Shown: positions 740 through 45,819 of the stretch, in pieces
How the letters are laid out: each line of letters opens with the position of its first letter
Numbering within the stretch: the first letter of the stretch is position 1
From: Haliotis rufescens
Lineage: Eukaryota
Reading direction: 5' to 3'
Length of the DNA: 64,000 nucleotides
NCBI RefSeq assembly: GCF_023055435.1
Contig: NW_025963946.1
Location: 7,812,001 to 7,876,000, forward strand
Position numbers and translations under genes: made by a program
The notes under the pieces: model-generated
Seen by the model: the letters and a program-made list of their open reading frames with translations, nothing else
Told to the model about the DNA's origin: nothing
Databases searched by the model: none

Positions 740-811
740 ATTCAGGCGAAGGCGATACGGAGTCGGTTTCAGACGCAGTTTCAGAAGGTGGACACAGGTC
801 GGACACAGAAG
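740..811 (+). CDS. Ankyrin gene copy 1, penultimate coding exon (xSGEGDTESVSDAVSEGGHRSDTE), phase 1-1
   Basis: tgttttcag|AT...GAAG|gtggga; 72 nt and open. Conserved at 34490-34561 and in phase with the next exon. Confidence 0.8.
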
Positions 812-1904
812 GTGGGATTTACAGCTATATATATGCCTTCACAAATCAAGACTCTTTTTTCCGATAGCATGTCATGGAAGTGATTAATACATTGAACTGT
901 ATTCGCATGTCCAGTTCGCAGTTCCTTTTCATGAGCTGATCTGTCGTGCATGTTGTCGCAGGAAGATTTGATATTAACTTACATAGATAGGAAACATATA
1001 TTGCTTAGTTCCCTCTCAGGAGAAGATATATCGTACATGAACATGTTGTAGAGAGAGTTAGCAGCTTTACTGCTTAGTTTACACTAATGAGTAGAAATCA
1101 CTTGTATGTAGATGTTACAAGTGTTTGCATACACATTGCCAAGTTCACCCAAATGAATTATTATAAAGGCATAGTCTTATATTTTGTTCAATTAAATAGT
1201 GGGTTGATTTTGAACTCACATGCTGATATCACGCTGTGATGACAAGATAGACTTGGCATGAACACTGACATGTGTTTTTCATGCATTGGAACAGATGCTA
1301 TGTGCTATACTCACAAAATGTTATGGTCGTTTATTTGTGTCTCCCAAATTATCAATAATTTGACGATTACAACTAGATACAAATGACATCATTGAATTAT
1401 CATTACAAATGGTCTAATGGACCCCTGTGTTTACAAGTATCTACAAACTTATTAGTATAGTATGTCCACGGATAAATGTTTCGCGTGACTGATAAAATGT
1501 ATGAGGTTAATTTCAGCCGCTTATATAGTTATTTCCAAAGAGAATGTTTTAGCATATCCAGTTTGTCTGTAAAGTAATAAGAACGACCGATAGCCGTCCG
1601 TTTGCCCCTGTCCGTTCGACCGTCCGTCCGATTAAAGGAAACTCTTAGTCAAATGAAACAAAGTATCAGACGCAAAATTAAACTGTATTTTTTGTCAGTT
1701 CAACACTATTCTGTTTCCGAGGAAACATATCCCATTTTCTTATGATTGACAATAAGAATATTTTCTGGAGCCCATCTTAACAAACCTTCTCAACCGTTGA
1801 GTAACGATGCTAATGCGTCGACAATGTATGCCAGCCTTTAGATTCTTAAGTCACAAAGGGACATTTACAAACATTCTATTTCAAATACACTTGACAATTT
1901 CCAG

Positions 1905-3763
1905 GGAAGATGCCTCACCTAACGTCCAAGTGGGAGATACAAGAGGGCAACATGAAGCTGATCTACTATGACAGGAACCACATGCTGAATGAGGCTTGTC
2001 GGGAGGGAAAGTTAGAGATAGTAAAGAACATTTTGTCAACTGGTTCTGCAGATATAAATAACAAATCCCAGGGTGGCTGGACACCTGTGCTTCTTGCAGC
2101 CAATACAGGTCGAAAAGACATATTTGATGTGTTGGTGAAGAAAGGGTGCAATCTCTCAGCAGTGTTAGACAACGGCAACAATATCCTTCATGTGTCATGT
2201 TTAAGTGGTAATACTGATATCACAGAATATCTTACAGCAGTAGTCAGTATTGACAGTAAAGGCATGTATGGCAGAACAGCTGTGATGAAGGCGGCGGCTG
2301 TGGGCAATAAAAACGTGTTCGATCTCCTGGTGGGTAAAGGATGTGACCTGTCAGCAGTGGATGATGGAGGTTACAACATCCTTCATCTTGCCTGTTTTAG
2401 TGACAATGTGTACATTGTCGAGCATCTCATCACACACAAGATAGCTGACATAGAGAGCCGAGGCAATTTTGGGAGAACGCCGGTGATGTGTGCATCATGG
2501 GTGGGTCGGCAGAAGGTGTTCGATCTCCTGGTGGGTAAAGGATGTGACCTGTCAGCAGTGGATGATGACGGTAACAACATCCTTCACATTGCCTGTTTTG
2601 GTGGCAATGTGTACATTGTCGAATATCTCATCACACACAACACAGCTGACATAGAAAGCCGAGGCAACTTTGGGACAACACCGGTGATGGCAGCAGCAGA
2701 GAAGGGTCAGCAGAAGGTGTTTGATCTCCTGGTGGGTAAAGGATGTAACCTTTCAGCAGTAGATGGTAAAGGTAACAACATCCTTCACTTTGCCTCTTTT
2801 AGTGACAATGTACACATTGTCGAGTATCTCATCACACACAAGATAGCTGACATAGAGAGCCGAGGCGAGGTAGGGAGAACACCGGTGATGTTTGCAGCAG
2901 AGAAGGGTAAACAGCAGGTGTTCTATCTCCTGGTTGGTAAAGGATGTAACCTGTCAGCAGTGGATGATGGAGGTGACAACATCCTTCACCTTGCCTGTTT
3001 TAGTGACAATGTGCACATTGTCGATTATCTCATCACCCACAACACAGCTGACATAGAGAGCCGAGGCCGGTTTGGGAGAACACCGGTGCTGTTTGCAGCA
3101 GAGACGGGTAAACAGCAGGTGTTCGATCTCCTGGTTGGTAAAGGATGTAACCTGTCAGCAGTGGATGATGACAGTAACAACATCCTTCACCTTGCCTGTT
3201 TTAGTGGCAATGTACACATTGTCGAGTATCTCATCACACACAACATAGCTGACAAAGAGAGCCGAGGCCAGGTAGGGAGAACACCGGTGCTGTTTGCAGC
3301 AGAGAAGGGTCAGCAGAGGGTGTTCGATCTCCTGGTGGGTAAAGGATGTGACCTGTCAGCAGTGGATGATGGAGGTAACAACATACTTCACCTTGCCTGT
3401 GTTAGTGGCAATGTGCACATTGTCGGGTATCTCATCACACACAAGGTAGCTGACATAGAGAGCCGAGGCCGGTTTGGGAGAACACCGGTGATGACTGCAG
3501 CAGAGATGGGTAATCAAAAGGTTTTCGATCTCCTGGTGGGTAAAGGATGTAGTCTGTCAGCAGTGGATGATGACGGTAACAACACCCTTCACCATGCTGC
3601 ATACGCAGGGACAGTAGGAATTGTAAACCGACTTCTCTCAGAGTCAGCTGTAGAAGTATCTGCCACAAACAACAGAGGTGAAACGCCATTGCAGATTGCA
3701 CTGAGATACAACCAAGGCGCTATAGTGAAGATTCTTAGAGCTAGATCTGACACGCTGCTTTGA
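1905..3763 (+). CDS. Ankyrin gene copy 1, terminal exon with about 18 ankyrin repeats (7 near-identical 67-aa double units); upstream exons lie outside the window
   Basis: 617-aa ORF with GRTPV..AA..G and GNNILH.AC motifs. Acceptor atttccag|GG is in phase 1. AATAAA at 3913-3918. Confidence 0.95.
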
Positions 3764-12972: not shown

Positions 12973-12974
12973 AA

Positions 12975-18560: not shown

Positions 18561-18921
18561 CTTATCTTGAGACCAAGGGAGCACAATGAAAAACAGCGTC
18601 AATTTTGTTACAATAATGAGGTAACATATAATTTAAATGTATCATTTATACCGTAAAACATGCAATGCTACACCTGCGTATATTCCTTTTCAGGTTGATG
18701 TTCTTTTTGAAGTACTAATGAAACATACAGCTAGAGCCGATGCACCTGTCGATGCATTTTGTCATTGTTGTCTTATAATGAATTAAAATCTGCCCCGAAA
18801 ATATGACTTATTGTTAGAGGACTCGTGAGAAAACTGGAAACTTAGAACACGCCATAAAAAGTGGGATGCATTTCTTTCAGTGAGTGAGTGAATGAGTATA
18901 TATTTATTCCACCCTCAAGGA

Positions 18922-19152
18922 GACCCTTGAAGATCCGGGGTAGAATAGGTCTTCAGCAACCCATGCTTGCCGTAAAAGGCGACAAACGGGATCGGATGTT
19001 CAGGCTCGCTGACTTGGTTGTTGCATGTCTACGATCCCAATGTCGTGGATTGATGCTCGTGATATCAATCACTGGATTGTCTGGTCCAGACCCGATTATT
19101 TACAGACCGCCGTCATATAGCTGGAATATTTCAAACAACAAACCAACCAACC
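18922..19152 (+). mobile_element. SINE family B (Nin/Deu-domain-like); a second partial copy is at ~19425-19615
   Basis: gaagatccggggtagaataggtcttcagcaacccatgcttgccgtaaaaggcgac core, with tagctggaatat and (CAAC)n tail. Confidence 0.8.
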
Positions 19153-21232: not shown

Positions 21233-22468
21233 TATACTTTCCCAAAAAAAGAAACGCAAAGCCAGATCTGCGTGAGGTAGGAAAATATATTAAAACATTT
21301 ATACGAGGAACCGTACAAAGTATTGAACCAAAATGATGTGGAGAGAACACTTGATGATTGTAGTCCCCTCAGTTATCGGTACATAGAAAAAGTCCTAGCT
21401 GAAAGTCAGCTACCATCAATAACGCGTTTGTCCCCCGTTGGGATAGTGGCCTGTCATCTCCAGCCCATGGAAGAGACGAGTATGCGAATCACATCCTGGG
21501 GAATGGTAGCCCACTCGGCCTGCAACGCAAAAGTCAACTTCTCTAAAGCCTGGGGTTGTGGTTGACGTCAGCTTAGCCATCTGTCCAATTCATTCCATAG
21601 GTGCTCGGGCCAGGGGAGAACATCAACGCTGGGCGTTGTCCTGCTGGAATACACCGTTGCTGTTGGCTGCAATTGGGAGGACGTGTGGGTAGGAGAATTT
21701 GTTTGATGTATCGTTGAACCGTAAGATTGCCCTGGATAGGGACCAAACCTGACCTGCCATAGTGAGAGATAGCCGCCCACATCATAACGCTACCTCCACC
21801 AAACCTGTCCAATTCCTGTACGCAGTTTCCAGCATAACGTTCTCCCAGGCGTCTGTAGACCAGTGCTCTTCCAGCCCCTCGACGCAGGAGAAATATTGAT
21901 TCGTCACTTAACCAGACATCTCGAGCTCCGTCGCAGTTGAGGTCATACCCTGTGTAGACTACACCAATGCAGTTGTTGTCTGCTCTTAAACAGTTTTGTA
22001 CGGTCTGTTCGGAGATTCTACGCAGTCCGGGTATTTGGGATCGGTTGAGGTGGCTGTTGTTGTCCTTTCACGTAGGTGGTGCAGTCGGATGTAGCGATCT
22101 TGGGCGGGGGTGCTTACTCTTTGTCGTCCCGACCTCGGCCGATCATGTATTGACCCATGCGGTTGAAACTGATCCCATGCCAGGCAATCAAAAACCCTGC
22201 TCTTTAATACCGTTTATAGTGCTGGTGCACGTGCAGTGCGTGCAGCTCCATGGCCCTTGTGTTAATGCATTGGGAGCGTTTCCCGACTACTGGTTTGCAT
22301 GTCCTTGTTGTGATCACATTGATCCGGGAAATTTTTCACTGTCACTTGAAAAAACACATTAACCCTCTTCTCTGCACCTCTTGGTGCGCTAACATTTGCT
22401 GATTAATTTTGCTAAATTTGCTTTTGTGGCCAATATATCCGTATTGCGTTTCTTTTTTTGACTGCATA
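21233..22468 (-). mobile_element. Decayed Tc1-type transposon
   Basis: Broken frames give SDES, RFGGGSVMMWAAIS, GNLT..RY..QIL, FQQDNA and WP..EHLWNELD. Short TIRs: caaaaaaagaaacgcaa / ttgcgtttctttttttg. Confidence 0.9.
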
Positions 22469-24019: not shown

Positions 24020-26377
24020 TTACACAGTTTTACAGTTGTCTGACATTGAGACAGACGTTGACTGTCTCTGTCATGCCACGTGTCAGAGTTACACAGTTTT
24101 ACAGTTATCTGACGTTGAGACAGACGTTGACTGTCTCTGCCATGCCACGTGTCAGAGTTACACAGTTTTACAGTTATCTGACATTGAGACACGTTGACTG
24201 TCTCTGCCATGCCACGTGTCAGAGTTACACAGTTTTACAGTTATCTGACATTGAGACAGACGTTGACTATCTCTGCCATGCCACGTGTCAGAGTTACACA
24301 GTTTTACAGTTATCTGACATTGAGACAGACGTTGACTGTCTCTGCCATGCCACGTGTCAGAGTTACACAGTTTTACAGTTATCTGACATTGAGACAGACG
24401 TTGACTGTCTCTGCCATGCCACGTGTCAGAGTTACACAGTTTTACAGTTATCTGACATTGAGACACGTTGACTGTCTCTGCCATGCCACGTGTCAGAGTT
24501 ACACAGTTTTACAGTTATCTGACATTGAGACACGTTGACTGTCTCTGCCATGCCACGTGTCAGAGTTACACAGTGTTACAGTTATCTGACATTGAGACAC
24601 GTTGACTGTCTTTGCCATGCCACGTGTCAGAGTTACACAGTTTTACAGTTATCTGACATTGAGACAGACGTTGACTGTCTCTGCCATGCCACGTGTCATA
24701 GTTACACAGTTTTACAGTTATCTGACATTGAGACAGACGTTGACTGTCTCTGCCATGCCACGTGTCAGAGTTACACAGTTTTACAGTTATCTGACATTGA
24801 GACACGTTGACTGTCTCTGCCATGCCACGTGTCAGAGTTACACAGTTTTACAGTTATCTGACATTGAGACACGTTGACTGTCTCTGCCATGCCACGTGTC
24901 AGAGTTACACAGTGTTACAGTTATCTGACATTGAGACAGACGTTGACTGTCTTTGCCATGCCACGTGTCAGAGTTACACAGTTTTACAGTTATCTGACAT
25001 TGAGACACGTTGACTGTCTCTGCCTTGCCACGTGTCAGAGTTACACAGTTTTACAGTTATCTGACATTGAGACAGACGTTGACTGTCTCTGCCTTGCCAC
25101 GTGTCAGAGTTACACAGTTTTACAGTTATCTGACATTGAGACACGTTGACTGTCTCTGCCTTGCCACGTGTCAGAGTTACACAGTTTTACAGTTAGCTGA
25201 CATTGAGACACGTTGACTGTATCTGCCTTGCCACGTGTCAGAGTTACACAGTGTTACAGTTATCTGACATTGAGACACGTTGACTGTCTTTGCCATGCCA
25301 CGTGTCAGAGTTACACAGTTTTACAGTTATCTGACATTGAGACAGACGTTGACTGTCTCTGCCATGCCACGTGTCAGAGTTACACAGTTTTACAGTTATC
25401 TGACATTGAGACAGACGTTGACTGTCTCTGCCATGCCACGTGTCAGAGTTACACAGTTTTACAGTTATCTGACATTGAGACACGTTGACTGTCTCTGCCA
25501 TGCCACGTGTCAGAGTTACACAGTTTTACAGTTATCTGACATTGAGACACGTTGACTGTCTCTGCCATGCCACGTGTCAGAGTTACACAGTGTTACAGTT
25601 ATCTGACATTGAGACACGTTGACTGTCTTTGCCATGCCACGTGTCAGAGTTACACAGTTTTACAGTTATCTGACATTGAGACACGTTGACTGTCTCTGCC
25701 ATGCCACGTGTCAGAGTTACACAGTTTTACAGTTATCTGACATTGAGACAGACGTTGACTGTCTCTGCCTTGCCACGTGTCAGAGTTACACAGTTTTACA
25801 GTTATCTGACATTGAGACACGTTGACTGTCTCTGCCTTGCCACGTGTCAGAGTTACACAGTTTTACAGTTAGCTGACATTGAGACACGTTGACTGTATCT
25901 GCCTTGCCACGTGTCAGAGTTACACAGTTTTACAGTTATCTGACATTGAGACAGACGTTGACTGTCTCTGCCATGCCACGTGTCAGAGTTACACAGTTTT
26001 ACAGTTATCTGACATTGAGACACGTTGACTGTCTCTGCCTTGCCACGTGTCAGAGTTACACAGTTTTACAGTTATCTGACATTGAGACAGACGTTGACTG
26101 TCTCTGCCTTGCCACGTGTCAGAGTTACACAGTTTTACAGTTATCTGACATTGAGACAGACGTTGACTGTCTCTGTCTTGCCACGTGTCAGAGTTACACA
26201 GTTTTACAGTTATCTGACGTTGAGACAGACGTTGACTGTCTCTGCCATGCCACGTGTCAGAGTTACACAGTTTTACAGTTATCTGACATTGAGACAGACG
26301 TTGACTGTCTCTGCCATGCCACGTGTCAGAGTTACACAGTTTTACAGTTATCTGACATTGAGACAGACGTTGACTGA
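24020..26377. repeat. 69/67-bp minisatellite, about 35 copies
   Basis: Unit gttacacagttttacagttatctgacattgagaca(ga)cgttgactgtctctgccatgccacgtgtcaga, very homogeneous. Confidence 0.97.
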
Positions 26378-28442: not shown

Positions 28443-29351
28443 ATGAGTAGGGGTGGTGGCAATGGCGGCGATGCAGGTACGTGGCTATGAGAGTCACAGC
28501 AACATTAGGTGACACAAACGATGGTTATTGACAATATAGTGGCTACATCGTCTTCTAACTTGGATCTACCACTCATGTGTTCACTATGGGATTATATGGA
28601 TAACCGTAAGTTGAAGATTGTCATGTATTTATATTGTTTATTTTGACATGACACTAATTTCCAGGTGATTTGTTACAAAAGAAGACAGGTTACGTTACAA
28701 GCCAATTTCAAGGGAAAACTCGGCCGGAGAAGTACTTAACTGTTTGTCATAATAAAATGTCGACCCGTCATAAAGCTTGAATATTGCTGAGTGCGGCGTA
28801 AAACAACCAACCAACCAACCAACCAACATAATCAAATGTCAGATGAAAATAGATCTATATGTTGAAAAGTGTCCAACCAAGTACATGTGTACATGGTGTC
28901 TTGCTAATATGACACTTTATGGGCCTTCAACACGCCACCCAAGTCATGTATATACAACCTTGAACAATATCGACCCAGTTAATCTTAACTTTCTTATGAC
29001 TGCCACCTTGTGGGCTATTTATAGTCAGGGTGGGGCTTTCTTTGACTGTATGTGTGCAGTAAACCGGTTTCAGTGGCCGCGTCATACCAATAACCGGTAC
29101 AGGGGATAACGCAAGGACGATCGGTATGTGTTTGTTGGTATGGTGCGACATGCTATCTCAGACCTGAATTGACTGCCCTCGCTGTTATTCTGCATGGGCC
29201 GCGCCAATAAGAGGATAAGTCGAAAATAATCCTTGACAATTTCTAGTTTGAAATATCTCTTATATGCAATATCACCCAAGTGTTGTACAAGTAAGTAAAT
29301 GTTTTGTCTTCAGAACGTCCATCTGCAAAAGTCCCCTTTAGGAAGTTATGA
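28443..29351 (+). CDS. Predicted upstream coding segment of ankyrin gene copy 2 (exons 28443-28476, 28665-28688, 29314-29351): MSRGGGNGGDAGDLLQKKTERPSAKVPFRKL*
   Basis: Three consecutive GT-AG exons joined in phase 1. The frame ends at TGA 29349-29351, overlapping ATG 29348. Confidence 0.5.
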
Positions 29352-32300
29352 AGAAGAACAGCCCAACACACGTCCCTCCGGACAGAAGAGGAAAAAGACA
29401 TGATGCTCCCTCACCTAAAAAAGCTCACAATCCTGTAGCAGGTAATCTACTCATACTAATCTTATGATACTTTGTTTGTATGGTTATTGTTATCATGATT
29501 ATTTATATATCTGCATGCATTTCCATCTCCTTTCCTCGGCACGGGTGACCCTGTCGTCTAAGGAGCCGCAATTCGCTGTGCAATTCGCGTGGGCTAGAAA
29601 CTTATGATTGTAGGTCCGAATTATGTTTCCAGGTTTGTCAGCACCCAAACCGTGCTTGTGGGTTTCACCAAGGCGGTCAACGTTTGAAATTTGCATCACT
29701 CCCCTGATACACTGTACATGTGATATAACTGGAATATTGTTAAGAGCGGCACTCACTCCGTCTCCTTGTATGTAAGAACTATCATTAACGATATTCCGAT
29801 GACGGCATGGAACAATACCATATACTTTTTATGATATTTGCTGATACAATTCTGTGCAATTCGAACGTGTGATACCCTGATATTTGTCCACAGTTGTGTA
29901 AAAATTAAAAATTGTCGAATGTGTTTATGTCTAACTACTGATACTTCAATATGACAGCCAGTTGAGATTGAAAGACCTATTTTACAGAATCAACAGCTGT
30001 CTCTGTTACTGGCGCTACAGGTGAAAGCAAGGTTAAAAAGCTTGAGGCAATAGGACAGAAGTTTTCCGGAGGTCAAGGTGATGCATGTGTTCATAGTGTC
30101 TCGTCATTACGTTACATCAGTCTGTGGTCGCCGTTGTAAGTTTTAAGCGAAACTGTTAACATTTGTTGCAGCGTGCATACATATCTGTGCATGTGTGGCT
30201 GATTGTACTAATATATACTGGTTTTGTACTAGTCCGTACTAATATATACTGGTTTCATAGTGCTAGCCCGCTGAGATACCATGCCGCAGTTTAACATGGA
30301 TACACCACTCAGATACTGTATACTGACTTTGAGTCGACCAGCCCTTTGTTTTATCCCCTTTATGCCGAGCTCGGGGCAGGGAAACAACAAGTACCATCGT
30401 TTAACGTGTTTTAGTATGACACGGCAAGGGGATCGAAGCACCGAGCTTCCGCTCTCTCGGCAGACGCTCTTTCCACAACACCACGGAGGTGGTCAGGGTA
30501 TTTAGAACCACAACCTCCAGCTTTCGGGCCAGACGTCTTATGAAAAGATAAAATTCTCATTAAAAATTGTTGTGTTGAAATGACGAGTGATATCAATATT
30601 GATGGATATTTCTCTACATACAGACCCTTTGAAAACGTTAAATTTATGCTTCATATACATAGAGTAATCGATAACATGTTTCAGGTAGGAGAAATATGTT
30701 GACAATATTTACCATTTCTATTGGCAGTTGTGTTCATTTCTAGTCTCATGTTCTTGGATCGCGTGACCCATGCAAACCATGATGTTACCTAATTAACTCA
30801 CATGACAGTACTTAATTTCCACTACCAATGGAAAATCATGTATATCATTGAAATCATGTGTAATCAGATGCAGAAGACATTCAGATACTGTACATTAACG
30901 AGGTAAGAACGTACACATTTCAAACCTGTCAAACTATATAGTATTATTCATGTCCACTCTTATATTGCGTTATTTTAATTATAATTTGATTGTTACTGAA
31001 ATTTTGAAAAGTCTACTCTTCTTCTCAGTACAAGGTAGCGTCAGTACGTATACTGGAGATGTCAACGTCAACATCCACAACAGTTCCTCCCGGCCAGGTA
31101 GGATTGGAATAGTTATCGTGATGTGTATGCTACACAAATAGGCGTGACACTACACCACACTACGTTTCATGCCGATTGCACATACCAAGACACGTAGTGC
31201 ATATATGATCGAATACAGAGAAGGATTAGAAAAAGTACATTTCAAGTTACAAGGAAGGAAACTTTAATTTGTTGTGTAATTGGAGGATATTTCATGTGTC
31301 GAGTGAAATACCATGTTTCTCTCATGGAGTGATGAGGGGAAGGGAGATATTTTCACGAGTGGCGTATTTAAGGTCACGAAAATTCTTTATCATACATTTC
31401 GACATGATTATGTACAAAATCAGCCATAAAAAAACATATTCTTGAAAACTAGGAGAACGCTGTTGGAAGCAAAGGAATACACGCTGGTTGGGTAACAGAA
31501 ATGAGAAATCTACAGTTCATACCGAAACGTTTTCGAGAAAATAGCAAACGGCAAGCAGTGATATTAACTCCATAAATAACCATCTTTCATTATTTTGCCT
31601 TGTCAATATGGAACTCGTAGAAAAGGGACATCAAAAGTTTGTATACGGGCCAGACACTGGCGATAAAGTGAGATAATTTAAGGGAATGACAATAGTTCCG
31701 TGAAAGTGTTATGATCAATGCAGTGAAATATCAAGTGTTATGTTCACTGCAATGAAAATATCACGTTTCTCAAATTCAGAATGCTCAGTCTTTTACATTG
31801 ATGTATATAATAATGTTATGGGTTGCGGTTATAGGTTATAGTACACGTTAAAGGTACAAAAAACTGACATGGATAATCGTATATTGCAGATAAGGGGCCA
31901 CACGATCGTTATGAGGCTGATCGTGGACATTTAGTGCCGAATTTATTGGAAGAAAAAGGTAGGCATGTTAAACAGATAACAAAAGGGAGAATTTGGGATG
32001 GTGGAGCATGCATAGTCACCCTGGTATAGTCACAGGGCTGCACAACGTGATTAAAGTTAATATGCAGAATCATTTATTGAAGTTATTTACATCACAAGTG
32101 ACCTTTTAATATGGGAACAATAACAACAACAACAACAACAACAACAACACCAACAACAGAGTCTTAGTTCATCAGCGTACCGATACCTGTACACACAATC
32201 ATGATTAACAGGACGAAGTTGATGTTACTTAGTATGTGAAATATATGAACAATTATACTTCATTTTCCGTTACGGGGATGAAAGGCGGAGAAATAATTGA

Positions 32301-35300
32301 AACTGTTTAACGAAAATACTACTACGACTTTTCAATACAAACACACACGAAAGACGACCTGGAGGTGTTCTGCGGTTGGGGGGATAGTGTTACTGTTAAC
32401 AAGAGATAAAGTAGTCACACCACTCAACAACCTGATGAACTGGGTCAGACGCACCTAAAATGCTGACTTGGAAAGTGTGGAAGACGGAAGTTTGATATTT
32501 GTATTTATGCACGAAACTGAAGAAGACGCTCTGAGGATGATGAGGGACCAAACATAAGTCAAGCCTCTGCTTCTGGGATTTATTCACACAATAATTACCA
32601 GTGTCAAAGATATCGAAATAAATGTTGAAATGCGAAAAACAAATCAATCAACAAATCCAGTTGAATCAGGTAAATTTTTTCCAAGGATATAATTACATGT
32701 TTGAATATAGATTTACCAAAAGTGAATATCTGTATTATCTCAAGTGTTGAAGTACAAGTATTATTTTTGGTCTCGTTCATTTTTCTAGAACTTGAAGATC
32801 TTCACATAGACTGTGAGACTGGACTGAAGGTATGTTTTCCCTAACGACTGTTGATAGTGTGTTCAATATTTGTATGCTATGTCTTATGTACTATGGATAT
32901 TATATATTATATTATTACAAAGTAACATTAAGTTCTTTGTTAGATTTTGAATAAGTTACAGCATGTATATACTGTTTTTAGTTTTGAAAAAATATGATGT
33001 GGAATATCATTTACTTACACATTTGTAAGTTTATCTAAAATTTGTTTCAGCTTCGTGAACGTCTTGATGCCATGCAGCAAAGGATAACAGACTTGGAGCG
33101 AAGAGTGTTGAAGCTCGAGAAAGATGCAGAAGCAGGTACACACGCTTGTGTTTGTATTCACTCTGTTCCTTCAGTAACTGACAAACAGTACGATTGAATG
33201 ACCCTGATAAAAACAACTTGCGTGGTGCATAATCAGGTCAAGTTATCTGTTTTTCAGAAACCAGGATGTTGCCTTGGATGCGATCTGACGCCAGCGGACA
33301 CTGTGAGTGTATATGCCAGCTATTTTGACGTTGGGTTGGGCTACCATTGATGAGGACACGCATCTTAATTTCTATTTAAATCCACGCCCTGAAATTGCAG
33401 ATATCACATTGCAGAGTGTATGTCCTTGCAACGAACAAAGAAAACACATCCTCATACATGGCACAATGTTACCCAAAATGAAACATTTTCTTCTGTTGTT
33501 ATTCATGTGTCCCCAGTTTAACCATCATATGCACGTAATGTTAATCGATGTGTGACCGTTTGGTGTCAGTATGACATGCGCTGATGGAATAGATAACATA
33601 CATTCCATACTCTGGACAAAAACTATAATTGTCTCTGACCGTGTCACTCAACCACTCAACCATGCACTGGTGTCAAGTTAATGCACTCTTGTGGGTTTAA
33701 ACTATAAGCTTTAATACATTTTAAACAACCAGTTATATGTCTGTTTTAAATACGATATTGAACATTTTCTCTCAGAAATTCAGCTGTTATGTCAATGGTA
33801 TTTTTTTTGTCACCACACATTTATGAAGCATCCAAGATAATTGATCTTATATAGAGACGTACATGCACGTGTGTGTGTGTGTGGCTGCTTGTACTTGTCC
33901 GGACTGATGCCGATTTATAGTGCTAGCCCACTGATATACCATGCCGCAGTTTAACTTGAATACCCCATTCAGCCACAGTATACCGACCAGTCCTTGTTTA
34001 AGCGTCAGACAGGGTAACAACAAGTACCATCTATCTAACATGTTTAGTATCACGCGGCCGGGGATCGAAACCCGGACCTTCCGCTCTCCGGGCGTACGCT
34101 CTACCACTGGACAACGGAGGCGGTCGTCACGTACAGACAAATAATAGTAACGTCACAGAACGAAGCGATTTTAAATACAGAATCATAAGTGCATCTTTCT
34201 TGTCATGCCGTAACATTCTACGTGAGGGGATAACAAATGGTTTTCCATCATACATCTAAACTATTCCAGAATCCAACGCCACTTCTCTAAGTTTAAGCAA
34301 TACGGAAAGATACATTTCTTACACAGTACTTTAGGACACTAGTTGACGTTGTTGTTCTATTTTGCTTGTGTCTTGATTGCTGATGAGGATCGTGAACGGA
34401 ATACACAGCCATAAACACCGGTGTTTTTGTGTGCATGTATTTGTAGCTTAAATATAGTTATTTTCAAACAGTTTGATGTTTGTTTTCAGATTCAGCTGAT
34501 GACGATACAGAGTCGGTTTCAGACGCAGTTTCAGAAGGTGGACACAGGTTGGACACAGAAGGTGGGATTTACAGCTACATATATTATTCCTTAACAAATC
34601 AAGACTCTTTTTTTCCGATAGCATGTCATGGAAGTGATTAATACATTGAACTGTATTTGCATGTCCAGTTCGCAGTTCCTTTTCATGAGCTGATATGTCG
34701 TGCATGTTGTCGCAGGAAGATTAAATATTAACTTACATAGATAGGAAACATATATTGCTTAGTTTCCTCTCAGGAGAAGAATAAGGATATATGAACATGT
34801 TGTAGAGAGAGTTAGCAGCTTTACTGCTTAGTTTACCCTTTGGGGTCGAAATCACTTGTATGTAGATGTTACAAGTGTTTGCATACACATTGCCAAGTTC
34901 ACCCTAATGAATTATTATAAAGGCATAGTCTTATATTTTGTTCAATTTAATAGTGGGTTGATTTTGAACTCACATGCTGATATGACGCTGTGATGACAAG
35001 ATTGACTTGGCATGAACACTGACATGTGTTTTTCATGCATTGGAACTACCAGATGCTAGGGTGCTATACTTACAAAATGTTATGGTCGTTTATTTGTGTC
35101 TCCTAAATTATAAATTATTTGACGATTACAACTAGATACAAATGACATCATTCAATTATCATTACAAATGGTCTAATGGACCCCTGTGTTTACAAGTATC
35201 TACAAACTTATTAGTATAGTATGTCCACGGATAAATGTTTCGCGTGACTGATAAAACATATGAAATTAATTTCAGCCGCTTATATAGTTATTTCCAAAGA

Positions 35301-37134
35301 AAATGTTTTAGCATATCCAGTTTGTCTAAGATATTCATAAATCAAGAAGTAATAAGAACGACCGATAGCCGTCAGTTTGCCTCTGTCCATTCGACCAATC
35401 CGATTATAGGAAACTCTTAGTCAACTGAAACAAAGTATCAGACGCAAAATTAAACTGTATTTTTTGTCAGTTCAGCAGTATTCTGTTTCCGAGGAAACAT
35501 ATCCCCTTTTTCTTGTGATTGATAATAAGAATATTTTCTGGAGCCCATCTTAACAAACATTCTCAACCGTTGAGTAACGATGCTTATGCGTTGACAATGT
35601 ATGTCAGCCCTTAGATTCTTAAGTCAGAAAGGGACATTTACAAACATTCTATTTCAAATGCACTTGACAATTTCCAGGGAAGATGCCTCACCTAACGTCC
35701 ATGTGGGAGATACAAGAGGGCAACATGAAGCTGATCTACTATGACAGGAACCACATGCTGTATGAAGCTTGTCGGGAGGGAAAGTTAGAGATAGTAAAGA
35801 ACATTTTGTCAACTGGTTCTGTAGATATAAATAACAAATCCCAGGGTGGCTGGACACCTTTGCTTCTTGCAGCCAGTACAGGTCAAAAAGACATATTTGA
35901 TGTGTTGGTGAGGAAGGGGTGCAATACCTCAGCACTGTTAGACAACGGCAACAATATCCTTCATGTGGCATGTTTAAGTGGCAATACTGATATCATAGAA
36001 TATCTTACAGCAGTTGTCAGTATTAACAGTATAGGCATGTATGGCAGAACAGCTGTGATGAAGGCGGCGGCTATGGGCAATAAAAACGTATTCGATCTCC
36101 TGGTGGGTAAAGGATGTAACCTGTCAGCAGTGGATGATAAAGGTAACAACATCCTTCACTTTGCCTGTTTTGGTGGCAATGTGCACATTGTCAATTATCT
36201 CATCAAACACAATATAGCTGACATAGAGAGCCGAGGCCAGGTAGGGAGAACACCGGTGCTGTTTGCAGCCGAGATGGGTCAAAAGCAGGTGTTCGATCTC
36301 CTGGTGTGTAAAGGATATAACCTGTCAGCAGTGGATGATAAAGGTAACAACATCCTTCATCTTGCCTGTTTTAGTGACAATGTGTACATTGTCGAGTATC
36401 TCATCACACACAAGATAGCTGACATAGAGAGCCGAGGCCAGGTAGGGAGAACACCGGTGCTGTTTGCAGCCGAGATGGGTAAACAGCAGGTGTTCGATCT
36501 CCTGGTGGGTAAAGGATGTAACCTGTCAGCAGTGGATGATACAGGTAACAACATCCTTCACCTTGCCTGTTTTAGTGACAATGTGTACATTGTCGAGTAT
36601 CTCATCAAACACAATATAGCTGACATAGAGAGCCAAGGCCAGGTAGGGAGAACACCGGTGCTGTTTGCAGCAGAGAAGGGGAAACAGCAGGTGTTTGATC
36701 TCCTGGTGGGTAAAAGATGTAACCTGTCAGCAGTGGATGATAAAGGTAACAACATCCTTCACCTTGCCTCTTTTAGTGGCAATGTGCACATTGTCGAGCA
36801 TCTCATCACACACAAGATAGCTGACATAGAGAGCCCAAGTTTGGTAGGGAGAACACCGGTGATGTTTGCAGCAGGGCAGGGTAAACAACAGGTGTTCGAT
36901 CTCCTGGTGGGTAAAGGATGTAACCTGTCAGTAATGGATAATGAAGGTAACAACATCCTACACCTTGCTGCATTCACGGGGACAGTAGGAATTGTAAACC
37001 GAGTTCTCTCAGAGTCAGCTGTAGAAGTATCTGCCACAAACAACAGAGGTGAAACGCCATTGCAGCCTGCACTGAGAAACAAACATGGCGCTATAGTGGA
37101 GATTCTTAGAGCTAGATCTGACACGCTGCTTTGA
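29348..37134 (+). CDS. Ankyrin gene copy 2, predicted 673 aa: exons 29348-29441, 29988-30077, 31029-31097, 31890-31958, 32789-32829, 33051-33135, 33258-33302, 34490-34561, 35678-37134. Low-complexity N-terminus, coiled coil, about 14 ankyrin repeats
   Basis: All exons have canonical AG/GT, are open and join with compatible phases (total 2022 nt). 33051-33135 encodes the heptad segment LRERLDAMQQRITDLERRVLKLEKDAEA. The terminal 483-aa ankyrin ORF is certain; the small exons are predictions. AATAAA at 37285-37290. Confidence 0.75.
29537..29758 (+). mobile_element. SINE family D, degenerate and intronic
   Basis: ggcacgggtgaccctgtcgtctaagg head, similar to 47020-47278, with an actcactc tail. Confidence 0.75.
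30165..30494 (-). mobile_element. SINE family A, intronic
   Basis: Matches 5864-6218 (ctgagataccatgccgcagtttaacat..., ccacggagg.ggtc). Confidence 0.85.
31270..31815. mobile_element. Putative non-autonomous element, Crypton-like
   Basis: Motifs gagtgaaata, atattttcacgagtggcg, gcagtgaaatatc...ttcactgc and a tgtatataataa end, recalled from molluscan non-autonomous Cryptons. Not verified. Confidence 0.35.
32117..32158. repeat. (CAA)n microsatellite
   Basis: Direct reading. Confidence 0.9.
32276..32669 (+). pseudogene. Dead internal exon of ankyrin gene copy 2, TRADD-N-like domain
   Basis: Pyrimidine tract then CGG instead of CAG (32273-32275); intact donor G|gtaaat. TAA at 32308, 32456 and 32555 plus one frameshift. 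Encodes ...NADLESVEDGSLIFVFMHETEEDALRMM... Confidence 0.65.
33828..34125 (-). mobile_element. SINE family A (paralog of 88-386)
   Basis: Same position within the duplicated intron. Confidence 0.85.
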
Positions 37135-37777
37135 GTTTGGAGAACTATTCAGGGCCATATCAAGGGGCTTATATCGGAGTGTCTCTGGAAGTGTACATCA
37201 TTCAGAGCTGTCTGTGATAATTTCTTGTACAAAGATAAATGTCTTTTTTTACCTCACTGTATTTACAGTTCATGTACGGGATAAAATAAATGTTTCAAAT
37301 CATTAACAAGGCGTCAGTTTGCTATAACGGCACCTTATCAACAGGTTCAGATTTGAAGTTGAGGTGTGCAGTGTTACAGGTCCACCGTATTCGTGGCCGT
37401 GAGAGTAGACTGGATATGCCAACGCCTTGCATCAATATATCTCAAAGAGTTATTCACTATGTTAAACATAGTGGGTTGAATTATTTCATGTTTTGTTTCA
37501 TGATGGAGATATATACATGCATTATCGAACCCTGTCACACTTGGTCTGTATCGATAGGACACGTATATCACACTGTTACATTTGGTGTGTACAATTTAGA
37601 CACGTATATCATGGGTTATAACCTCTGATTTGTAGGAGTACATTTTCACTCGCTCGTTTCCCAGACTTCAGCGACCACTTTGGAATATTGCTGTGCCTCT
37701 GTCGGGAAACAACAATCAATACTACTGTATAAATAAAACAAACATATCACGCCAGAACAACTTTGATCAGCATTGGG

Positions 37778-39031
37778 TAGATACGCACGTCACCCCCTGT
37801 CACATCTGATCTCTATGAAGGAGATACGCTCACCACACCGTGTGACATCTGGTCTGTTTGAGGGAGGTACGCACGTCAATCCCTGTCACAACTGGTCTGT
37901 ATGAGAGGGATACGCACATCACACCCTGTCACAACTGGTCTCTATGAAGGAGGTCACACCCTGTTACCTGATTTTCATCGAAGAAATACCCACATCACAC
38001 CCTATCACATCTGTTCTGTATGAGGAAAATACGCACATCACACCCATTTACATCGGTTCTGTATGAGGGAGATACGCACATCACACCCTGTCACATCTGG
38101 TCTGTATGAGGGAGATAAGCACATCACACCCTGTCACATCTGGCCTGTATGAGGGAGATACGCACATCACACCCTGTGACATCACTTCTGTATGAGGGAC
38201 ATACGCACCTCACACCCTGTCAAATCTGCCATGTTTGAGTGAGATACGCACGTCACACCCTTTCACATCGGTTCTGTATGAGGGAGACACGCACATTACA
38301 CACTGTAAATTCTGATCTGTTTGAAGGAGATACGCACATCACACCCTGTCAAATCTGGTCTATATGAGCGACGATCGCACGTCATACCCTTTAAAATCTG
38401 TCCTGAGGGAGATACTCACATCACACACTGTCACATCGGTTCTGTATGAGGGAGACACGCACGTCACACCCTGTCACATCTGGCCTGTATGAGGGAGATA
38501 CGCACGTCACACACTGTCACATCGGTTCTGTATGAGGGAGACACGCACATTACACCCTGTCAAATCTGGTCTATATGAGCGACGATCGCACGTCATACCC
38601 TTTAAAATCTGGCATGAGGGAGATACGCACGTCACACACTGTCACATCGGTTCTGTATGAGGGAGACACGCACATCACACCCTGTCCAATCTGGTCTATA
38701 TGAGCGACGATCGCACGTCATACCCTTTAAAATCTGGCCTGAGAGAGATACGCAAGTCACACACTGTCACTTCGGTTCTGTATGAGGGAGATACGCACGT
38801 CACACACTGTCACATCTGGTCTGTATGAGGGAGATACGCACGTCACACACTGTCACATCGGTTCTGTATGAGTGAGACACGCACATCACACCCTGAAAAT
38901 TCTGATCTGTTTGAAGGAGATACGCACATCACACCCTGTCAAATCTGGTGTATATGACCGACGATCGCACGTCATACCCTTTCAAATCTGGCCTGAGGGA
39001 GATACGCACATCACACACTGTCACATCGGTT
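37778..39031 (+). repeat. 43-bp satellite array, short paralogous copy (~1.25 kb)
   Basis: Same monomer and same 5' flank as 4697-12585. Confidence 0.95.
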
Positions 39032-42000
39032 CAATTGATAATCTCCGTTGTCTGTAAAATTGACATGTTTTAAAATATACAACACAATGCCACTGACATG
39101 GTTGGGAGACTGGCGCACATTAACACTGTGACGTGATGTGTGTGTGTGTGTATGTGTGCGTGTGAGTGTGTATGTATGTGTGTTAATGTCTGTGAGTTCA
39201 TCCCGTGTACCCACTTTCCACACACAGTGAGAGTATCATATCACATGAAACAATCAGACAAATTGACTCTGCTGGTCAAAGGGAAGCAACTCGCTATTAC
39301 ACACAGCACACGCATTTACAATGCATATCTCAGCACGCTTTTCCCTTCACTGTCACTGTCCATTCGTGACCAACTCGTGTATTTTTGGACAAGCCGAATA
39401 GCGACCCTTGCCCCTCACGTGGCCGTTTTTGCGACCAGGTTCCGTCTTAGCGTAAACGGGCATACCTAAAACAACTGTCAACTGGTTGTGTAATGGTTCA
39501 CATTTATATCCGTATATTATATGTATTTCATAAGCATATATGTACATGGGGAATTATACAGTATGATTGAACTCATTTAACTGAATCTTGGGTATACTTT
39601 TAGATGCAAAACATATGTAAAATCAAAAACTATATCTGAGGGATTCTGAGGGAGAATTTGAAATCATATGTGCATTCTGATTGGTTTGATGTATTTTCGC
39701 ACGTAACATTCATCGATAGGGGGACGGGTCTTCTTGCAGGTTACGGAAAGGGGCGAGTGGTGACGAATGTGTCACGGTCTTGTCACGTGTCAAAGTAACA
39801 CAATTATTTACCATTTATGTTCAGCCCTTGAAATGAATAATTGTTACCTGGATGCACATATCAAAGCTAGCGTCACAATTCTATGTTAACCGTTCATATT
39901 ACCTCCCCAATCAATGTATATTATATGTATATTATCATAACTAAGGTAAACGGCAGAAAAATGGAAGTCATATCGCAAACATGTGACACTATATCAAGTC
40001 ACAGGTGCATAAAAAAAGTGAACCGACTAAAGAAATCTGAATACAAAAACATTGGATGACATAATTCCTTATGTTGTTACATTTTCTGAAAATGATAAAT
40101 TATTCAACACCTGCCTCTTTCACATCGTCATCACATGTTGCAGATCAAAGCGATGACTAGAAGATGGATGCCAAAGCTAAACATTGTAAAATGCATAAAT
40201 CATCAAATGCTGACATTCAAATCATGAAGTGAAGCTGTCACAAACTTGCGCATTTTTACTTCTTTTTCTGAGAGAGTTAGTGAGTTAAACTTTCAGTTTT
40301 CAAGGCAATATCTCAAACCAAATTACATATTAAAAAAAAGCTGTGACCATTTCCGGCAAATCATTTACAATTAGAAGCTCCCTTACAATAAAAAGGTCAG
40401 TCAGATTTCCGGCTTCACATTGAGAAGCCCTTTCAATTGTACATACCAAGTTGTCAAGCACAGCACATCGTGTCATCATGAAAACAAAGTGGTGGAGGGT
40501 ATAGTTTAGAGCCTATCAGTTCTCCAGCCCATGCAAATGTTGCAAAGTTTAGAATACAGCGGCAAGGAAAAGATTCGACTCGTTCGTGTTGTCAGGCCCA
40601 TAACTCGCACAATATTTTCAATTGACTGTTTTGGCGTTTTTAAAGGTAATTTGTCAGTATTGTCGTGCCGCCATTTTGTAAAACATGTGCCGAAAAGTAT
40701 TCAAGTGCTGCATGGCTAATTAAGTCAGCAACTGTTAGTTGAACATGGACTTCTGAGTTCGATATGTCTGTCTAAACACTTACAATATTTTAAATACGCC
40801 GCTGCCCTACTTACAAAGTCCCACACCGTCTGGGAATGATGACACGAGATCAACCTAGCCACTGAGCCTTACCACCCGATCCCACGTTGTTGCCTCTCAA
40901 AGCAAGCAATAGTGTGTTGGACGCCTTGTTTCCAGCGTGGAACATAGACCAGCTGTTCACTACATGGACTGTTTATGAGCAAATCCGCTGTATGGTCCAA
41001 TGGAACTCGACTTCACCATGTGTGAAAACATAATGACCATGATGTCGAGCAGCAAACTCAAGCAAACTGATACGAATACATGTTTCTACACCTCAAAAAG
41101 ATTTAGATAACGAGTGTGGAAATTAACCCTACAACAGTGTAGTTATGTAACTGCTGCATCTTTGTTAGCCGTCTTTTACCGATAGCAAGTAGTGAGTAAG
41201 CTTTTGTATTTGTCGCATTAGATTAGCAAATTGTCATCTGTAAGGCGCGAATGGTGTTTCATAGATTGCAACATGTCATCAAACCACCAAAGCTATATAT
41301 TATATTATTCCAATTAGAAGTGTTAAACATTTTAGCATATCGAAAACATGATATAAAGCTCCACCAATATGAATATTGGAACATAAAACATCTTGTGCCT
41401 ACATGTTTACAAACCTTTTAAATTACCTTTAACTACACAAAGTTATTTCGATTGAACAGACTTTGCTCATTCTCTCAGTTATCAAAACGTTAAAATTTTA
41501 CATTTACATGTAGATTTATGTATGTTTAAAAACAAACACCATAAGATTTATAACATAAGAAATATATGTATGCTAGAAGCACGACATAATAAGACTGCTG
41601 ACATTAATGTTTATCCAATGACATTAATATTATAACAGAACACTTTTTCATACCACAGCCTGCCTTTGATCCAAAACAACAAATGCCTCGCGCATGAACA
41701 TGATCATAGGAACATACATGTTGACATCATTTTATATAAGGGTATTAGACCTGTGTTTGTCTAGGGCGACTCTGAGTCGATTAATGTACTCTATGTGACA
41801 ACGTCGTCAATACACTTTGTAGTTGCACAAGCTTATCATAATCAGTTCTACAATATGTCATTTACATGCAACACCCGAATTACGACAGCACAAATGATCA
41901 AAAGACAAAGTTCTTGGATCGCTGATCTGAAGATCTAGGGCTGAGCACAACAGCATAACCGAAATAAGAAGCGGTGCAGCAAGTGAGTTTCGAGCAGTGT

Positions 42001-42089
42001 AAACGTAGCAAAATGATGTACGTCTTCATCTCCCTTTTACTGATGTACGCATGCAGGTAAATGATTTTGTCATGTTCTGTCTGTTGATA

Positions 42090-42191
42090 GACCCGTGAAG
42101 ATCCGGATTAGAATAGGTCTTCAGCAACCCATGCTTGTCGTAAGAGGCGACTAACGGGATCGGGTGGAGAAGCTCCCTGACTTGGTTGATG
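42090..42191 (+). mobile_element. SINE family B, partial
   Basis: gacccgtgaagatccgg...acccatgcttgtcgtaagaggcgactaacgggatcgggtgg. Confidence 0.85.
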
Positions 42192-42942
42192 CGTGTGTTT
42201 TGGTAGGTCTTTAGATTGATTGATTTAGATTGATAGCTGCGATTGATACTTTGGCTGTTTACTGTGTACATAGAAGGCAAGTATCACATATTCAATGTAA
42301 AACAAATCGAAGTTAGTGCCATGGTGCGGTATCTAACCTTGATATAAAGTCAACAGGTTAAAAAGTTGTCAACATTAACATGACAATATGTTCTGCATAA
42401 CTGTAGAGGACTAACTATCAAATATAACGAGCTGAAACAAATATCATGTCATCATAATTTGGAACATACATATCACATATTCAGAAAGTCTGACACTGTC
42501 AGACAAGACGTTTACGGAAGTACAGTATGAATTTAGAAAGAATGTAAGTGCATGCTCTACACAAGCTAGAAAAATATGTAATATTCCAAACAGATCTTAA
42601 ACTAGTGTGTTCAATCCATAATATCCACGATGGTCATATTGGAAATCGGACTCGAGCCCCTTGAATAAACTCAGGTGTCAATATTGCTGAACACCAAGCA
42701 CCAAGATTCAGCTTCATAGGTCCAGTGATTTCGTGGAAGATGCTGTTTACAGAGCAAGGACAATCATTTTGTGGCAGCACGGTCATGGTTAAAGGTCAAA
42801 TAAAGGTAAAGACTAAACATATCGCAAACGAAACCTCTACTAGAACCAACAAAATTTCGTATTCGAACCTCTTAAACAAATTCGGGTGTCATCGTTGAAA
42901 CAAGTATGTATAGTGGTCAGGTTTTTTGGTCCAGAGAGGTTT

Positions 42943-43328
42943 AAGGTAGACACAATTTTATGGATAACAATTTCTTGAATCGTAAAAAGCGACGTTTCGG
43001 TATAGATCGTTATACCGTTGTCAATCAAAACTGAATAAGGGACATTGTACAGAATATATATATAATTGGTGGAGGATTAACAGTAGAGGATTAACAGTAA
43101 AAATTGCATACATGAGTGGGATAACATGAGTAGGTGTTGACAACAGAATGATAATACTGTCACAACACGATGGAAGCCAATGGGACATGAAACCAATTAA
43201 ACAGGATAAGTGATTATTGCTTGATGAGTTCATGGTAGGCGGATGGGATGAAATAGCCTTGATCTATACCGAAAAGTCGCTTTTTACTGTATTAAAGAAC
43301 CTGTTGTCCATAAAATTGTGTCTACCTT
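42943..43328. mobile_element. Penelope-type inverted repeat (arms 42943-43008 and 43261-43328) with a hammerhead-like core
   Basis: The arms are imperfect reverse complements. The minus strand of 42991-43024 reads TTGACAA-c-ggtata-acgatc-tatacc-GAAA-cg-TC. Confidence 0.55.
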
Positions 43329-43580
43329 GTCATCCGTCAATTTCTAAGTAATGCCTGTCAAACGAAGTTTAAGCAGGACAAACAGTCCACGACACATGGT
43401 CACTTGACATTCAGTGAGAGGAGCTAATAAAAGTAAATTGTACTAAATTGTTCTAAATACAGACGTCCGCTTACACCAATAAACAGGAATTTCTGATTTC
43501 TGAGGGAATGGTAAGAGTCTTGTTTGATTGCAAAGACCAAATCATAAAGTAGCACACTTGACAGGGATACTTTAATCACA

Positions 43581-43581
<1 letters not shown>

Positions 43582-43648
<67 letters not shown>
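43582..43648. repeat. (TA)n microsatellite
   Basis: Direct reading. Confidence 0.97.
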
Positions 43649-43652
<4 letters not shown>

Positions 43653-43884
43653 TCTTACAAAGGTAGGGTGAGTGAGTGAGTGAGTTGGGTTTAACGGTTT
43701 AAAAGGCGGCGTTAAACCCAACTCACTCATCCTATTAATTTTCAGTTCTTTACGAGTATACCCTACTTTTGTAAAGAGTATAAAGTGTCCATGAGTGTAA
43801 AGACTATCGTCCTGTGTCATAAAGTATACTGGTGGAGTGAGGTAAAGAAACAAGTCACTTCGGTACGTAGTACATCATCCATAA

Positions 43885-44152
43885 TGGTTGGTTGGTTGGT
43901 TTGTTTGTTGTTTTACGCCGCACTCAGCAATAGTCCAGCTGTATGATGGCGGTCTGTAAATAATCGAGTCTGGACCAGACAATCCAGTGATTGATATCAT
44001 GAGGATCAATCCACACAATCGGGATCGATGACATGCATCAAGTAAGTCAGCGAGCCTGACCACCCGATCCCGTCAGTAATAATCGAATCTGGACCAAGCA
44101 TTTACGGCAAGCATGGGTTGGTGAAGACCTATTCTAACCCAGATCTTCACGG
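43885..44152 (-). mobile_element. SINE family B
   Basis: Reverse complement of the 63684-63940 type. Confidence 0.85.
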
Positions 44153-44239
44153 GGATTATAGGTTGGATTGTGACTGTGTTGTCTAAATAACTTATTGTCA
44201 TCTATCATGCCCAGTGTATTTTTGTGTGCGTGCAAAGGC

Positions 44240-45660
44240 ACCGTTGTTTCTTCAGGTTATACAAACTTGAACTTCTATTGAAGATTATATGCGGCTATAT
44301 CTATAGATCGAATATCGTTTGATGAAATCAATGGTAGATAGATAGTTGAGTACAGCGTGTCGTACCATTGTCGAAAATGATTCAGGTACTCATACTGCTG
44401 TAAGCAAGATTGATTCAAAGAAAACCGATGAAAGGGAAATGTCCCGGCTTTCATGTGAAAGCTTGTGAATGTGTTATTTCCCTGTTGTGTGGTTTGAAGA
44501 TGTCTAACAAACTCCACTGAAACTGAATACCAAATGACTTGCGACACGTGGATGAGTGACGGTGCTACCGGTAGAGCAGGACATGTCTCTCCCTTTTCGC
44601 AAACACATGGTGTCATCACCAATTTACAGTGATTCATTCATATAGTGTAACCTAGTTTACCCTTTACGCCCTTTGGACTTTTTGTATGTGAATCATGCTT
44701 TTCCAAAAAACACTAATATTGGTCTTTTTTCACTTTTTTTTGTAAATGATATTTGATGTCAGGTCTACATTGTAGGGTACATGCTTGGGTAGTTTGGCAC
44801 CTCTTCATCTGAATAAACATCGTTAGCAGGATAAAAGTGAAATGTATAATAAACCTGGTTATGAATCGTCTTTGGGTCATATTTGAGAAACGTGAGCAAT
44901 TTAGTTTAAGAAGTTATTTTAATATTATAATATCACCAGACCTGTAAATAATCACGTCTGGACCAGTAACTAAAAACAGGAGCGACGTTATCAGGCCATG
45001 AGGACAACGAAATGAGGGACGTCCTCGGAGTGTAAAGCAAAATTGATTGTGCTCTGTTGGTACCTACGCACGTACAAGAGTTCCCTGAAATGAAATAAGC
45101 GTGTGCACGAGGGAGAAAATGACTGCACGTTGAAATACATGTTTTCAGACTACCTGGAAGAAGACTTTTGGTGGCGTGTCACCTAGTGAGTTGATACAGC
45201 AGAAAATGTTGACTGTAAAACAATGAAGCAATTTAAATATTCTAATTTTATTGCAAATGAGTAGGTACAGTATTGTTCTACCTTTACAGTTGGTACACCC
45301 AGAGACCTATAAAAATTAATATGATTCATATTGATAATAAAATATCAACAAGACTGTATGACAAGAGGGAGATCAAAAGGGATAACTTCAACTTTCCCTC
45401 TATGTCAAGCAATATTCCAGCAACTCAAGTCTTGGGCCCTACATTTCCATTTCACAACTTTTGACGAACACTCGAGCATTCTTTTTCTCCGATGATTTCA
45501 AAGAACGACATTAGAGTCTTGCTCAAAGCGTTTTCAGAAAGGGTTACACCATTTCCACCTTTTCAAAATCTAATGCATCACTTTTTTAAGAGTATATATT
45601 AACCTCTATCCATGAGTATACAGGCTGTCGTCTTGTGTCCTAAAGTGTACTGGTGGAGTA
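44240..45660 (+). mobile_element. Penelope-like remnants (~44240-44630 and ~45330-45660)
   Basis: KISTRLYDKR..DNFNFPSMSSNIPA in ORF 45273-45464. The 3' motif gcagg...aacac.tggtgtcatcac is shared with ~46965-47010 and ~15785-15825. Confidence 0.6.
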
Positions 45661-45819
45661 TTTCATTGATAATTTGACAAAAACATGTACTACATTTTAT
45701 GACCAAAAAAACTTTATGTGTCATATTAGGATAATTTCTATTCAATGCTGAAAGGCCTCAGGCCAATAGTACAATTCTGTTTTCGGGAGTGGTTAAAGAT
45801 ATGTTTAACAGGTCATATT

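Follow-up and report, generated by a model that had tools for sequence, protein, structure and literature searches.

In duplicated immune genes, exon skipping can remove a domain and thereby generate truncated or decoy paralogs, such as the CARD-only and pyrin-only proteins. Here we describe a dead exon, designated E5, of an ankyrin-repeat gene located in a 64,000-nucleotide (nt) stretch of Haliotis rufescens DNA (RefSeq assembly GCF_023055435.1, contig NW_025963946.1, positions 7,812,001 to 7,876,000 of the forward strand; hereafter, the window). As in the CARD-only and pyrin-only proteins, a paralog adjoining an intact gene has retained one module and lost another in frame; in those proteins, however, inhibition is shown and the signalling module is kept, whereas in abalone a putative signalling module is lost. 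The closest described counterparts of the lost domain are the TRADD-N domains, defined by a two-layer RRM/ferredoxin-like fold with a four-stranded sheet, kinked helices and the uS motif (a tiny residue, then Ser or Cys) at the beta2-beta3 turn; they were proposed to keep flanking domains inactive until repeats, e.g., ankyrins, sense an invader (Kaur et al., 2021, PMC8195603). Only four such domains were counted in each of Aplysia and Pomacea (Kaur et al., PMC8195603). Abalone ankyrin genes, in turn, form heavily duplicated, copy-variable regions (PMC12627906), and their link to defence is correlative only (PMC12627906, PMC5405107). The gene under study shares with this Haliotis ankyrin expansion the same repeats, the tandem duplication and the NCBI names ('PP6 regulatory ankyrin repeat subunit B-like', 'RF_0381'), its ankyrin exon being close to named Haliotis proteins and present in tandem copies; the difference is that the N-terminal domain and the exon loss go unmentioned in the passages covered of PMC12627906 and PMC5405107.

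Exon E5 (the exon map is given in Table 1) carries TAA stops at 32308, 32456 and 32555, in frames matching those of intact relatives, one frameshift and an intact donor (G followed by GTAAAT at 32670). Three TAA stops, a frameshift and the intact donor had been recognised in a first-pass annotation of this DNA; alignment with the relatives, which changes frame in the region of 32326-32335, puts the frameshift approximately there. The acceptor had been placed in that annotation at CGG (32273-32275), giving an exon of 394 nt (32276-32669), and this needed correction: because the relatives open the exon with VT(R/T), E5 starts at 32270, its broken acceptor is the CCG at 32267-32269, and its length is 400 nt (32270-32669). 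The ancestral acceptor was presumably CAG. A frameshift at the G run near 32378 was ruled out, since the relatives' 3' frame begins earlier. When translated with stops written as X, E5 gave four matches among 438 candidates (E 3.5e-52 to 9e-40, 64-76% identity), and the query made of the intact region found the same four proteins among 172 candidates. Paralogs with an intact exon, the search for which had been advised, are thus represented by four abalone proteins of the six in the family, including the neighbouring tandem copy, with domain versions of 133-134 amino acids (aa). The motif LESVEDGSLIFVFMHETEEDAL, reported earlier, is present in the dead exon, and a family profile run against the window revealed no second E5 copy (best other place, independent E-value 1.9). 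As a separate observation, E5 is nearer to the paralogs (95/112 to the protein P0002) than the surrounding live exons are (~65-83%), despite its three stops.

Both ends of E5 are in phase 1, as had been stated; retention of the exon stops translation at residue 120, while dropping E5 alone leaves an open frame of 673 aa. Cryptic acceptors capable of saving the domain were considered and rejected: among 11 in-phase AGs at 32150-32665, three yield stop-free exons, all of <=111 nt, located downstream of the GS motif and preceded by weak tracts. The lesions could in principle reflect misassembly or a null haplotype of a private kind, the species normally keeping E5 intact in this copy, as duplicated regions of abalone differ strongly between haplotypes (PMC12627906) and the copy is known from one sequence. 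Such an explanation is very improbable, however, with five separate lesions of three kinds within 400 nt, three of them single-base stops, flanking exons that are clean, and a database model that already leaves E5 out.

This model, P0006, was among the six proteins returned from 6713 candidates in a search with residues 1-350 of P0002. P0006 is an NCBI model of H. rufescens and represents the gene itself; P0003-P0005 and P0007 belong to H. cracherodii; the remaining one, P0002, comes from Haliotis and is named 'isoform X2'. The 650-aa sequence of P0006 corresponds letter for letter to exons E1, E2, E3 and E6-E10 of the window. It omits E5 together with the upstream E4, so that the junction used is 31097-32789 and not 31958-32789, as was expected in the first-pass annotation. 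The latter had also placed E5 between two live exons; this agrees with the intact AG/GT and the open frame of E4, but the skipping of E4 in P0006 makes its liveness doubtful, and the pyrimidine tract of E4 is weak (7/15). We infer that P0006 was likely built from spliced reads, because a homology-guided predictor would tend to include the intact and homologous E4. Other members of the family also lack exons: E3 is missing from P0003, while E4, E5 and apparently E8 are missing from P0007. E2, E3, E4, E5, E8 and E9 are all of phase 1/1, and the family makes use of this; the symmetric exons of the head and of the domain can each drop out without a frame shift. The loss of the same two exons in P0007 (black abalone) is apparently a separate loss, or an isoform, because P0007 is closer to P0002 (93% identity in the head, 96% at the ankyrin start) than to P0006 (70% and 87%); its placement as the sister of the dead-exon gene was not supported. 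Taken together, the loss of the domain was rightly recognised at first: E5 is a once-coding exon with a broken splice site, its homologs are intact elsewhere, and the frame is kept on skipping, as is characteristic of a skipped pseudogenised cassette exon, the in-frame bypass being present in the database model.

The layout of the family is a short low-complexity head, the TRADD-N-like domain, a coiled coil, an acidic linker and ankyrin repeats. A HMMER search of 1.84 billion representatives gave 22 matches at E<=0.001, one of which, P0020, is an unrelated repeat protein and was dropped. The remaining 21 contain four domain copies (one protein), two (ten proteins) or one (ten proteins), and we read them as abalone proteins because of their repeats. 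Ankyrins are carried by 7/22 representatives, and the domain precedes them in all of these, as well as in 4/4 intact paralogs. The paralogs also have weak coiled-coil-type Pfam rows, comparable with the heptad pattern of E7. No Death-fold or STAND/NACHT domain was present in P0002-P0005, in P0006-P0007 (precomputed annotation) or in the 22 representatives, and ankyrin families were the only ones in all of these proteins, P0020 being the unrelated repeat protein. The initial assignment to death-domain or NLR-type receptors is thus not supported, with no Death, DED, CARD or NACHT family in the gene or in 27 relatives; nor is the label 'decoy', the family having yielded no effector domain. The label 'sensor' for the ankyrin exon is likewise unsupported.

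In Pfam there is no family for the domain, and no TRADD-N row appeared for 25 members searched singly at E<=1. The AlphaFold2 model (25 sequences) of the domain from an intact paralog has the order beta-alpha-beta-beta-alpha-beta (E28-36, H51-64, E66-72, E75-82, H85-93/H95-109, E116-124), with a mean predicted local distance difference test score of 75.9, and the same fold was predicted for both domains of P0015. The second predicted helix is kinked and the first is not; the ferredoxin-like fold itself is common. In the model, G74-S75 stand at the beta2-beta3 turn, between E66-72 and E75-82, and the turn residues are G in 27/38 and S or C in 27/38 domain copies. ESM features led to PF20694 clusters at 0.91 (202/256 shared; 18% of members carry PF20694) and, for a second family member, at 0.87/0.84; both are to be taken as leads only. 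In the structure search the TRADD chain 1f3v_A had rank 4 of 1000 (Z 5.7, root-mean-square deviation 3.9, 105 aligned), a score that ties with those of ferredoxin-like chains unrelated to it (Z 5-6.5). In the wide structure search TRADD-N was absent from the first 50 matches with either model, as it was in the second look with the two-domain model, which excludes nothing. The sequence search of solved structures gave 0 matches for the peptide, with a best E of 0.18 for the profile, and Foldseek gave nothing at E<=0.001.

The predicted fold, the kinked second helix and the G-S turn liken the abalone domain to the TRADD-N superfamily. Invertebrate expansions of the latter (PF20694 TRADD-like_N and PF13820 NCOA6_TRADD-N) likewise stand ahead of variable C-terminal repeats including ankyrins, and in abalone, too, the domain has expanded in a slow-moving marine invertebrate; the nearest named ESM clusters carry PF20694. 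Unlike TRADD-N, the abalone family has no Pfam match and no Death, DED, CARD or STAND partner; its domain is often present two to four times in tandem instead of singly and has family-specific W and H residues, and on visual inspection it is without the 'G.L' that commonly follows the kink in one part of the published alignment (PMC8195603). The alternative likeness to SEA-like domains amounts to the same ferredoxin-like fold class, with PCDH15 extracellular-linker chains at Z 5.1-5.5 on a two-domain relative; in contrast to SEA-like domains, the abalone proteins show no evident signal peptide or membrane segment in their sequences, and the scores tie with many unrelated folds. The TRADD-N/SEA-like assignment made initially thus fits the fold, the motif and the language-model features, but falls short of proof, with no Pfam match and a tied structure search. 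We judge it likely that the domain belongs to the TRADD-N superfamily, its family being probably a new lineage-specific branch of it. Haliotis is not in the TRADD-N tables of PMC8195603 as far as these were searched (the term 'haliotis' occurs 0 times in supplementary files 1-11 and once in file 12, while files 4 and 13 could hold an entry). In the literature covered, which mostly leaves aside subscription journals, nothing on the family or on the exon-loss event was found: the search for exon loss gave only an unrelated match, that for TRADD-N nothing with abalone or a gastropod, and among the matches listed since 2021 no mollusc title except the survey of Kaur et al.

Outside E5, the reading frame looks protected and the amino-acid sequence does not. 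E5 has four coding lesions within its 400 nt, whereas the remaining 2022 nt have zero (p 0.0007 when the block is fixed, 0.0045 when a block of 400 nt may lie anywhere), all other splice sites are AG/GT, and the ankyrin exon of 1457 nt (35678-37134) is, as noted before, free of stops and frameshifts. Introns of the two copies diverged by 0.055-0.089 substitutions per site, with 11 indels in 1828 sites. At these intron rates, an ankyrin exon evolving neutrally since the duplication would be expected to accumulate ~1.5 stops and 2.9 frameshifts (~4.4 lesions), the probability of zero lesions being 0.012. The ratio of nonsynonymous to synonymous substitution rates (dN/dS) relative to the neighbour was 0.96 for 125 head codons, 2.0 for 62 tail codons and 1.07 (0.72-1.65) for 484 codons paired in order, for which the orthology of repeats is uncertain; dS was near the intron divergence. 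The earlier suggestion that selection continues on the rest of the gene is hence partly supported: it is in line with the clustering of lesions in E5, but not with the ankyrin dN/dS of ~1, nor with conserved repeat positions at which departures are about twice as frequent as in intact paralogs, nor with a rate of change that exceeds that of the paralogs.

These latter values would be expected if the whole copy were an early, perhaps still transcribed pseudogene, with the other exons open by luck and by homogenisation of repeats and copies. The dead-exon gene also has the longest branch of the tree (0.186 vs 0.02-0.13), and it departs at 12/180 conserved repeat positions vs 30/870 in intact paralogs (p 0.058), the departures including G>R, G>C, C>Y and R>P, as well as I>P in the last repeat. 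Yet all five lesions, the acceptor included, fall in one exon (p 0.0045, as above), the frame and splice sites are kept in eight or nine other exons, and P0002, which is intact, departs nearly as often (12/225); we therefore regard a pseudogene as unlikely.

The relative rate could also be read in terms of selected domain loss, the copy serving as a decoy or dominant-negative of its intact neighbour through the coiled coil or ligand uptake, with a diversifying ankyrin surface: over 188 ankyrin columns, 15 private changes are found in the dead-exon gene vs 2 in P0002 (p 0.002, the root being unknown). The same two-exon loss in the paralog of the second species agrees with this explanation, as do the changes in E5, where 3 stops are found among 11 changes (p 0.014) and new missense changes are fewer (8/126) than in the live exons (41/330, p 0.064). 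However, every dN/dS interval includes 1, changes also strike conserved structural positions, a single lesion kills the exon, so that further stops bring no gain, and it was the number of lesions that led to the choice of this finding; for the family, neither an effector domain nor a pathway is known. Considering these facts, we find selected loss distinctly unlikely.

The explanation we prefer, with a probability of roughly 0.58, is that a redundant copy of a birth-and-death family has lost the domain through exon skipping and that this loss is tolerated, rather than a newly selected function. Several points weigh against it. P0006 is a prediction, the RNA support of which is itself inferred; the six-protein trees lack a root and have weak support (41-95); with stops alone, an open ankyrin exon has a probability of 0.14-0.30 under neutrality, and the intron indel rates may overstate the coding ones. 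The paucity of missense changes and the excess of stops in E5 belong here too: the latter is unlike steady neutral decay and could point to selection, or both may be explained by recent death of the exon together with its choice for its lesions. The dead exon is real, and the gene is probably a transcribed, weakly constrained abalone paralog; the process by which the domain was lost is ordinary, and the decoy idea is unsupported.

E5 has lost the AG of its acceptor and gained three stops and the frameshift, and it may have been skipped in some transcripts already. Under the tolerated-loss scenario, the spliceosome would now join E3 to E6, bypassing the weak E4 too, which matches the NCBI model, and the product would be a 650-aa coiled-coil and ankyrin protein devoid of the domain. 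Its frame would still be guarded against truncation, as the lesion statistics suggest, while its amino acids drift roughly as fast as under neutrality, or faster. Should the domain be an interaction switch of the TRADD-N type, as Kaur et al. proposed for the superfamily, the protein could continue to bind ankyrin ligands and possibly pair via the coiled coil, but would no longer relay through the switch.

The window represents animal DNA with a G+C content of ~40%, and no Rfam match was obtained within it. It contains two copies of the ankyrin gene (1-4238 vs 33738-37611, ~90% in alignment) as parts of a tandem unit of ~31-34 kb, which consists of the ankyrin gene, a 43-bp satellite and a second gene (window 1-19000 and 33738-49800). 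The domain exon of the upstream copy is intact in P0002, its DNA preceding the window start. In its ankyrin part, P0002 matches the upstream copy except for a missing 67-aa unit (the two share a prefix of 414 and a suffix of 147, out of 551 aa; window 1907-3760), which probably reflects a false intron inside the 201-nt repeats, or unit skipping.

Table 1. Exons of the ankyrin gene and other features of the window (positions count from the first letter of the window)
Feature	Position	Strand	Length, phase	Remarks
E1	29314..29441	+		first coding exon of P0006; acceptor 29313; in-frame TAG ahead of ATG 29348
E2	29988..30077	+	90 nt, 1/1	begins Gly/Val/Thr-rich motif common to the family
E3	31029..31097	+	69 nt, 1/1	donor joined to E6 in P0006; absent from paralog P0003
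E4	31890..31958	+	69 nt, 1/1	intact AG/GT, open; weak acceptor; out of P0006 and P0007
Broken acceptor of E5	32267..32269	+		CCG (ttttCCG); good pyrimidine tract upstream, 11/15
E5, dead exon	32270..32669	+	400 nt, 1/1	once a TRADD-N-like domain of 133-134 aa
E6	32789..32829	+	41 nt, 1/0	
E7	33051..33135	+	85 nt, 0/1	coiled-coil-like heptad pattern, read from sequence
E8	33258..33302	+	45 nt, 1/1	6 codons shorter than in paralogs
E9	34490..34561	+	72 nt, 1/1	acidic linker
E10, ankyrin exon	35678..37134	+	1457 nt	open; 201-nt tandem unit = two repeats
Upstream tandem copy, final two exons	740..3763	+		neighbour; NCBI model P0002
43-bp satellite	4697-12583 and 37779-39027			
Further tandem arrays	24020-26376, 14593-15405, 12584-12972			periods 67-69, 168 and 44 bp
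Second duplicated gene	~16585-17640 and ~47630-48780	+		copies 77-79% alike
C1q-domain and coiled-coil frames	55195-55614 and 57427-58449	-		C1q domain (E 1e-18); long coiled-coil frame, hydrophobic start
Single frame	21573-22067	-		no Pfam match at E<=1

The motif of E2-E3 (window 29988-31097), rich in Gly, Thr, Val and Asn and starting with [VI]TG..G.S, occurs in 14/27 family proteins, often sits between domain copies and is retained in the domain-less form; it has no Pfam match, and we take it to resemble RHIM- or BASS-type amyloid signalling motifs. In the second duplicated gene, a Cys-containing exon without a Pfam match is followed by a Thr-rich stalk and a hydrophobic end, a sequence that suggests a surface-anchored protein. 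The C1q-domain and coiled-coil frames on the minus strand probably constitute one secreted C1q-domain gene, the single frame listed in Table 1 resembles a DDE transposase (Tc1/mariner), and the 44-bp array is related, in inverted orientation, to the 43-bp satellite.

A broader picture, which we put forward as improbable, is that abalone possess a hitherto undescribed family of intracellular sensors with one to four TRADD-N-like switches and a possible amyloid-type assembly motif before variable ankyrins, in which the symmetric cassette exon of the switch is repeatedly removed, through skipping or decay of its splice site, to give inhibitory partners next to the intact gene; the locus would then represent an intermediate frozen in place, the two forms being adjacent. 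Exon death in a duplicated gene is a well-known event; what the locus shows is how symmetric exons let a family of marine invertebrates shed domains, and with the intact and domain-less copies lying side by side, what the domain does can be tested directly. It also brings to light a probable abalone TRADD-N-like family, missed by Pfam and masked by database names, and such a gastropod expansion, if true, would extend the pattern described by Kaur et al. (PMC8195603).

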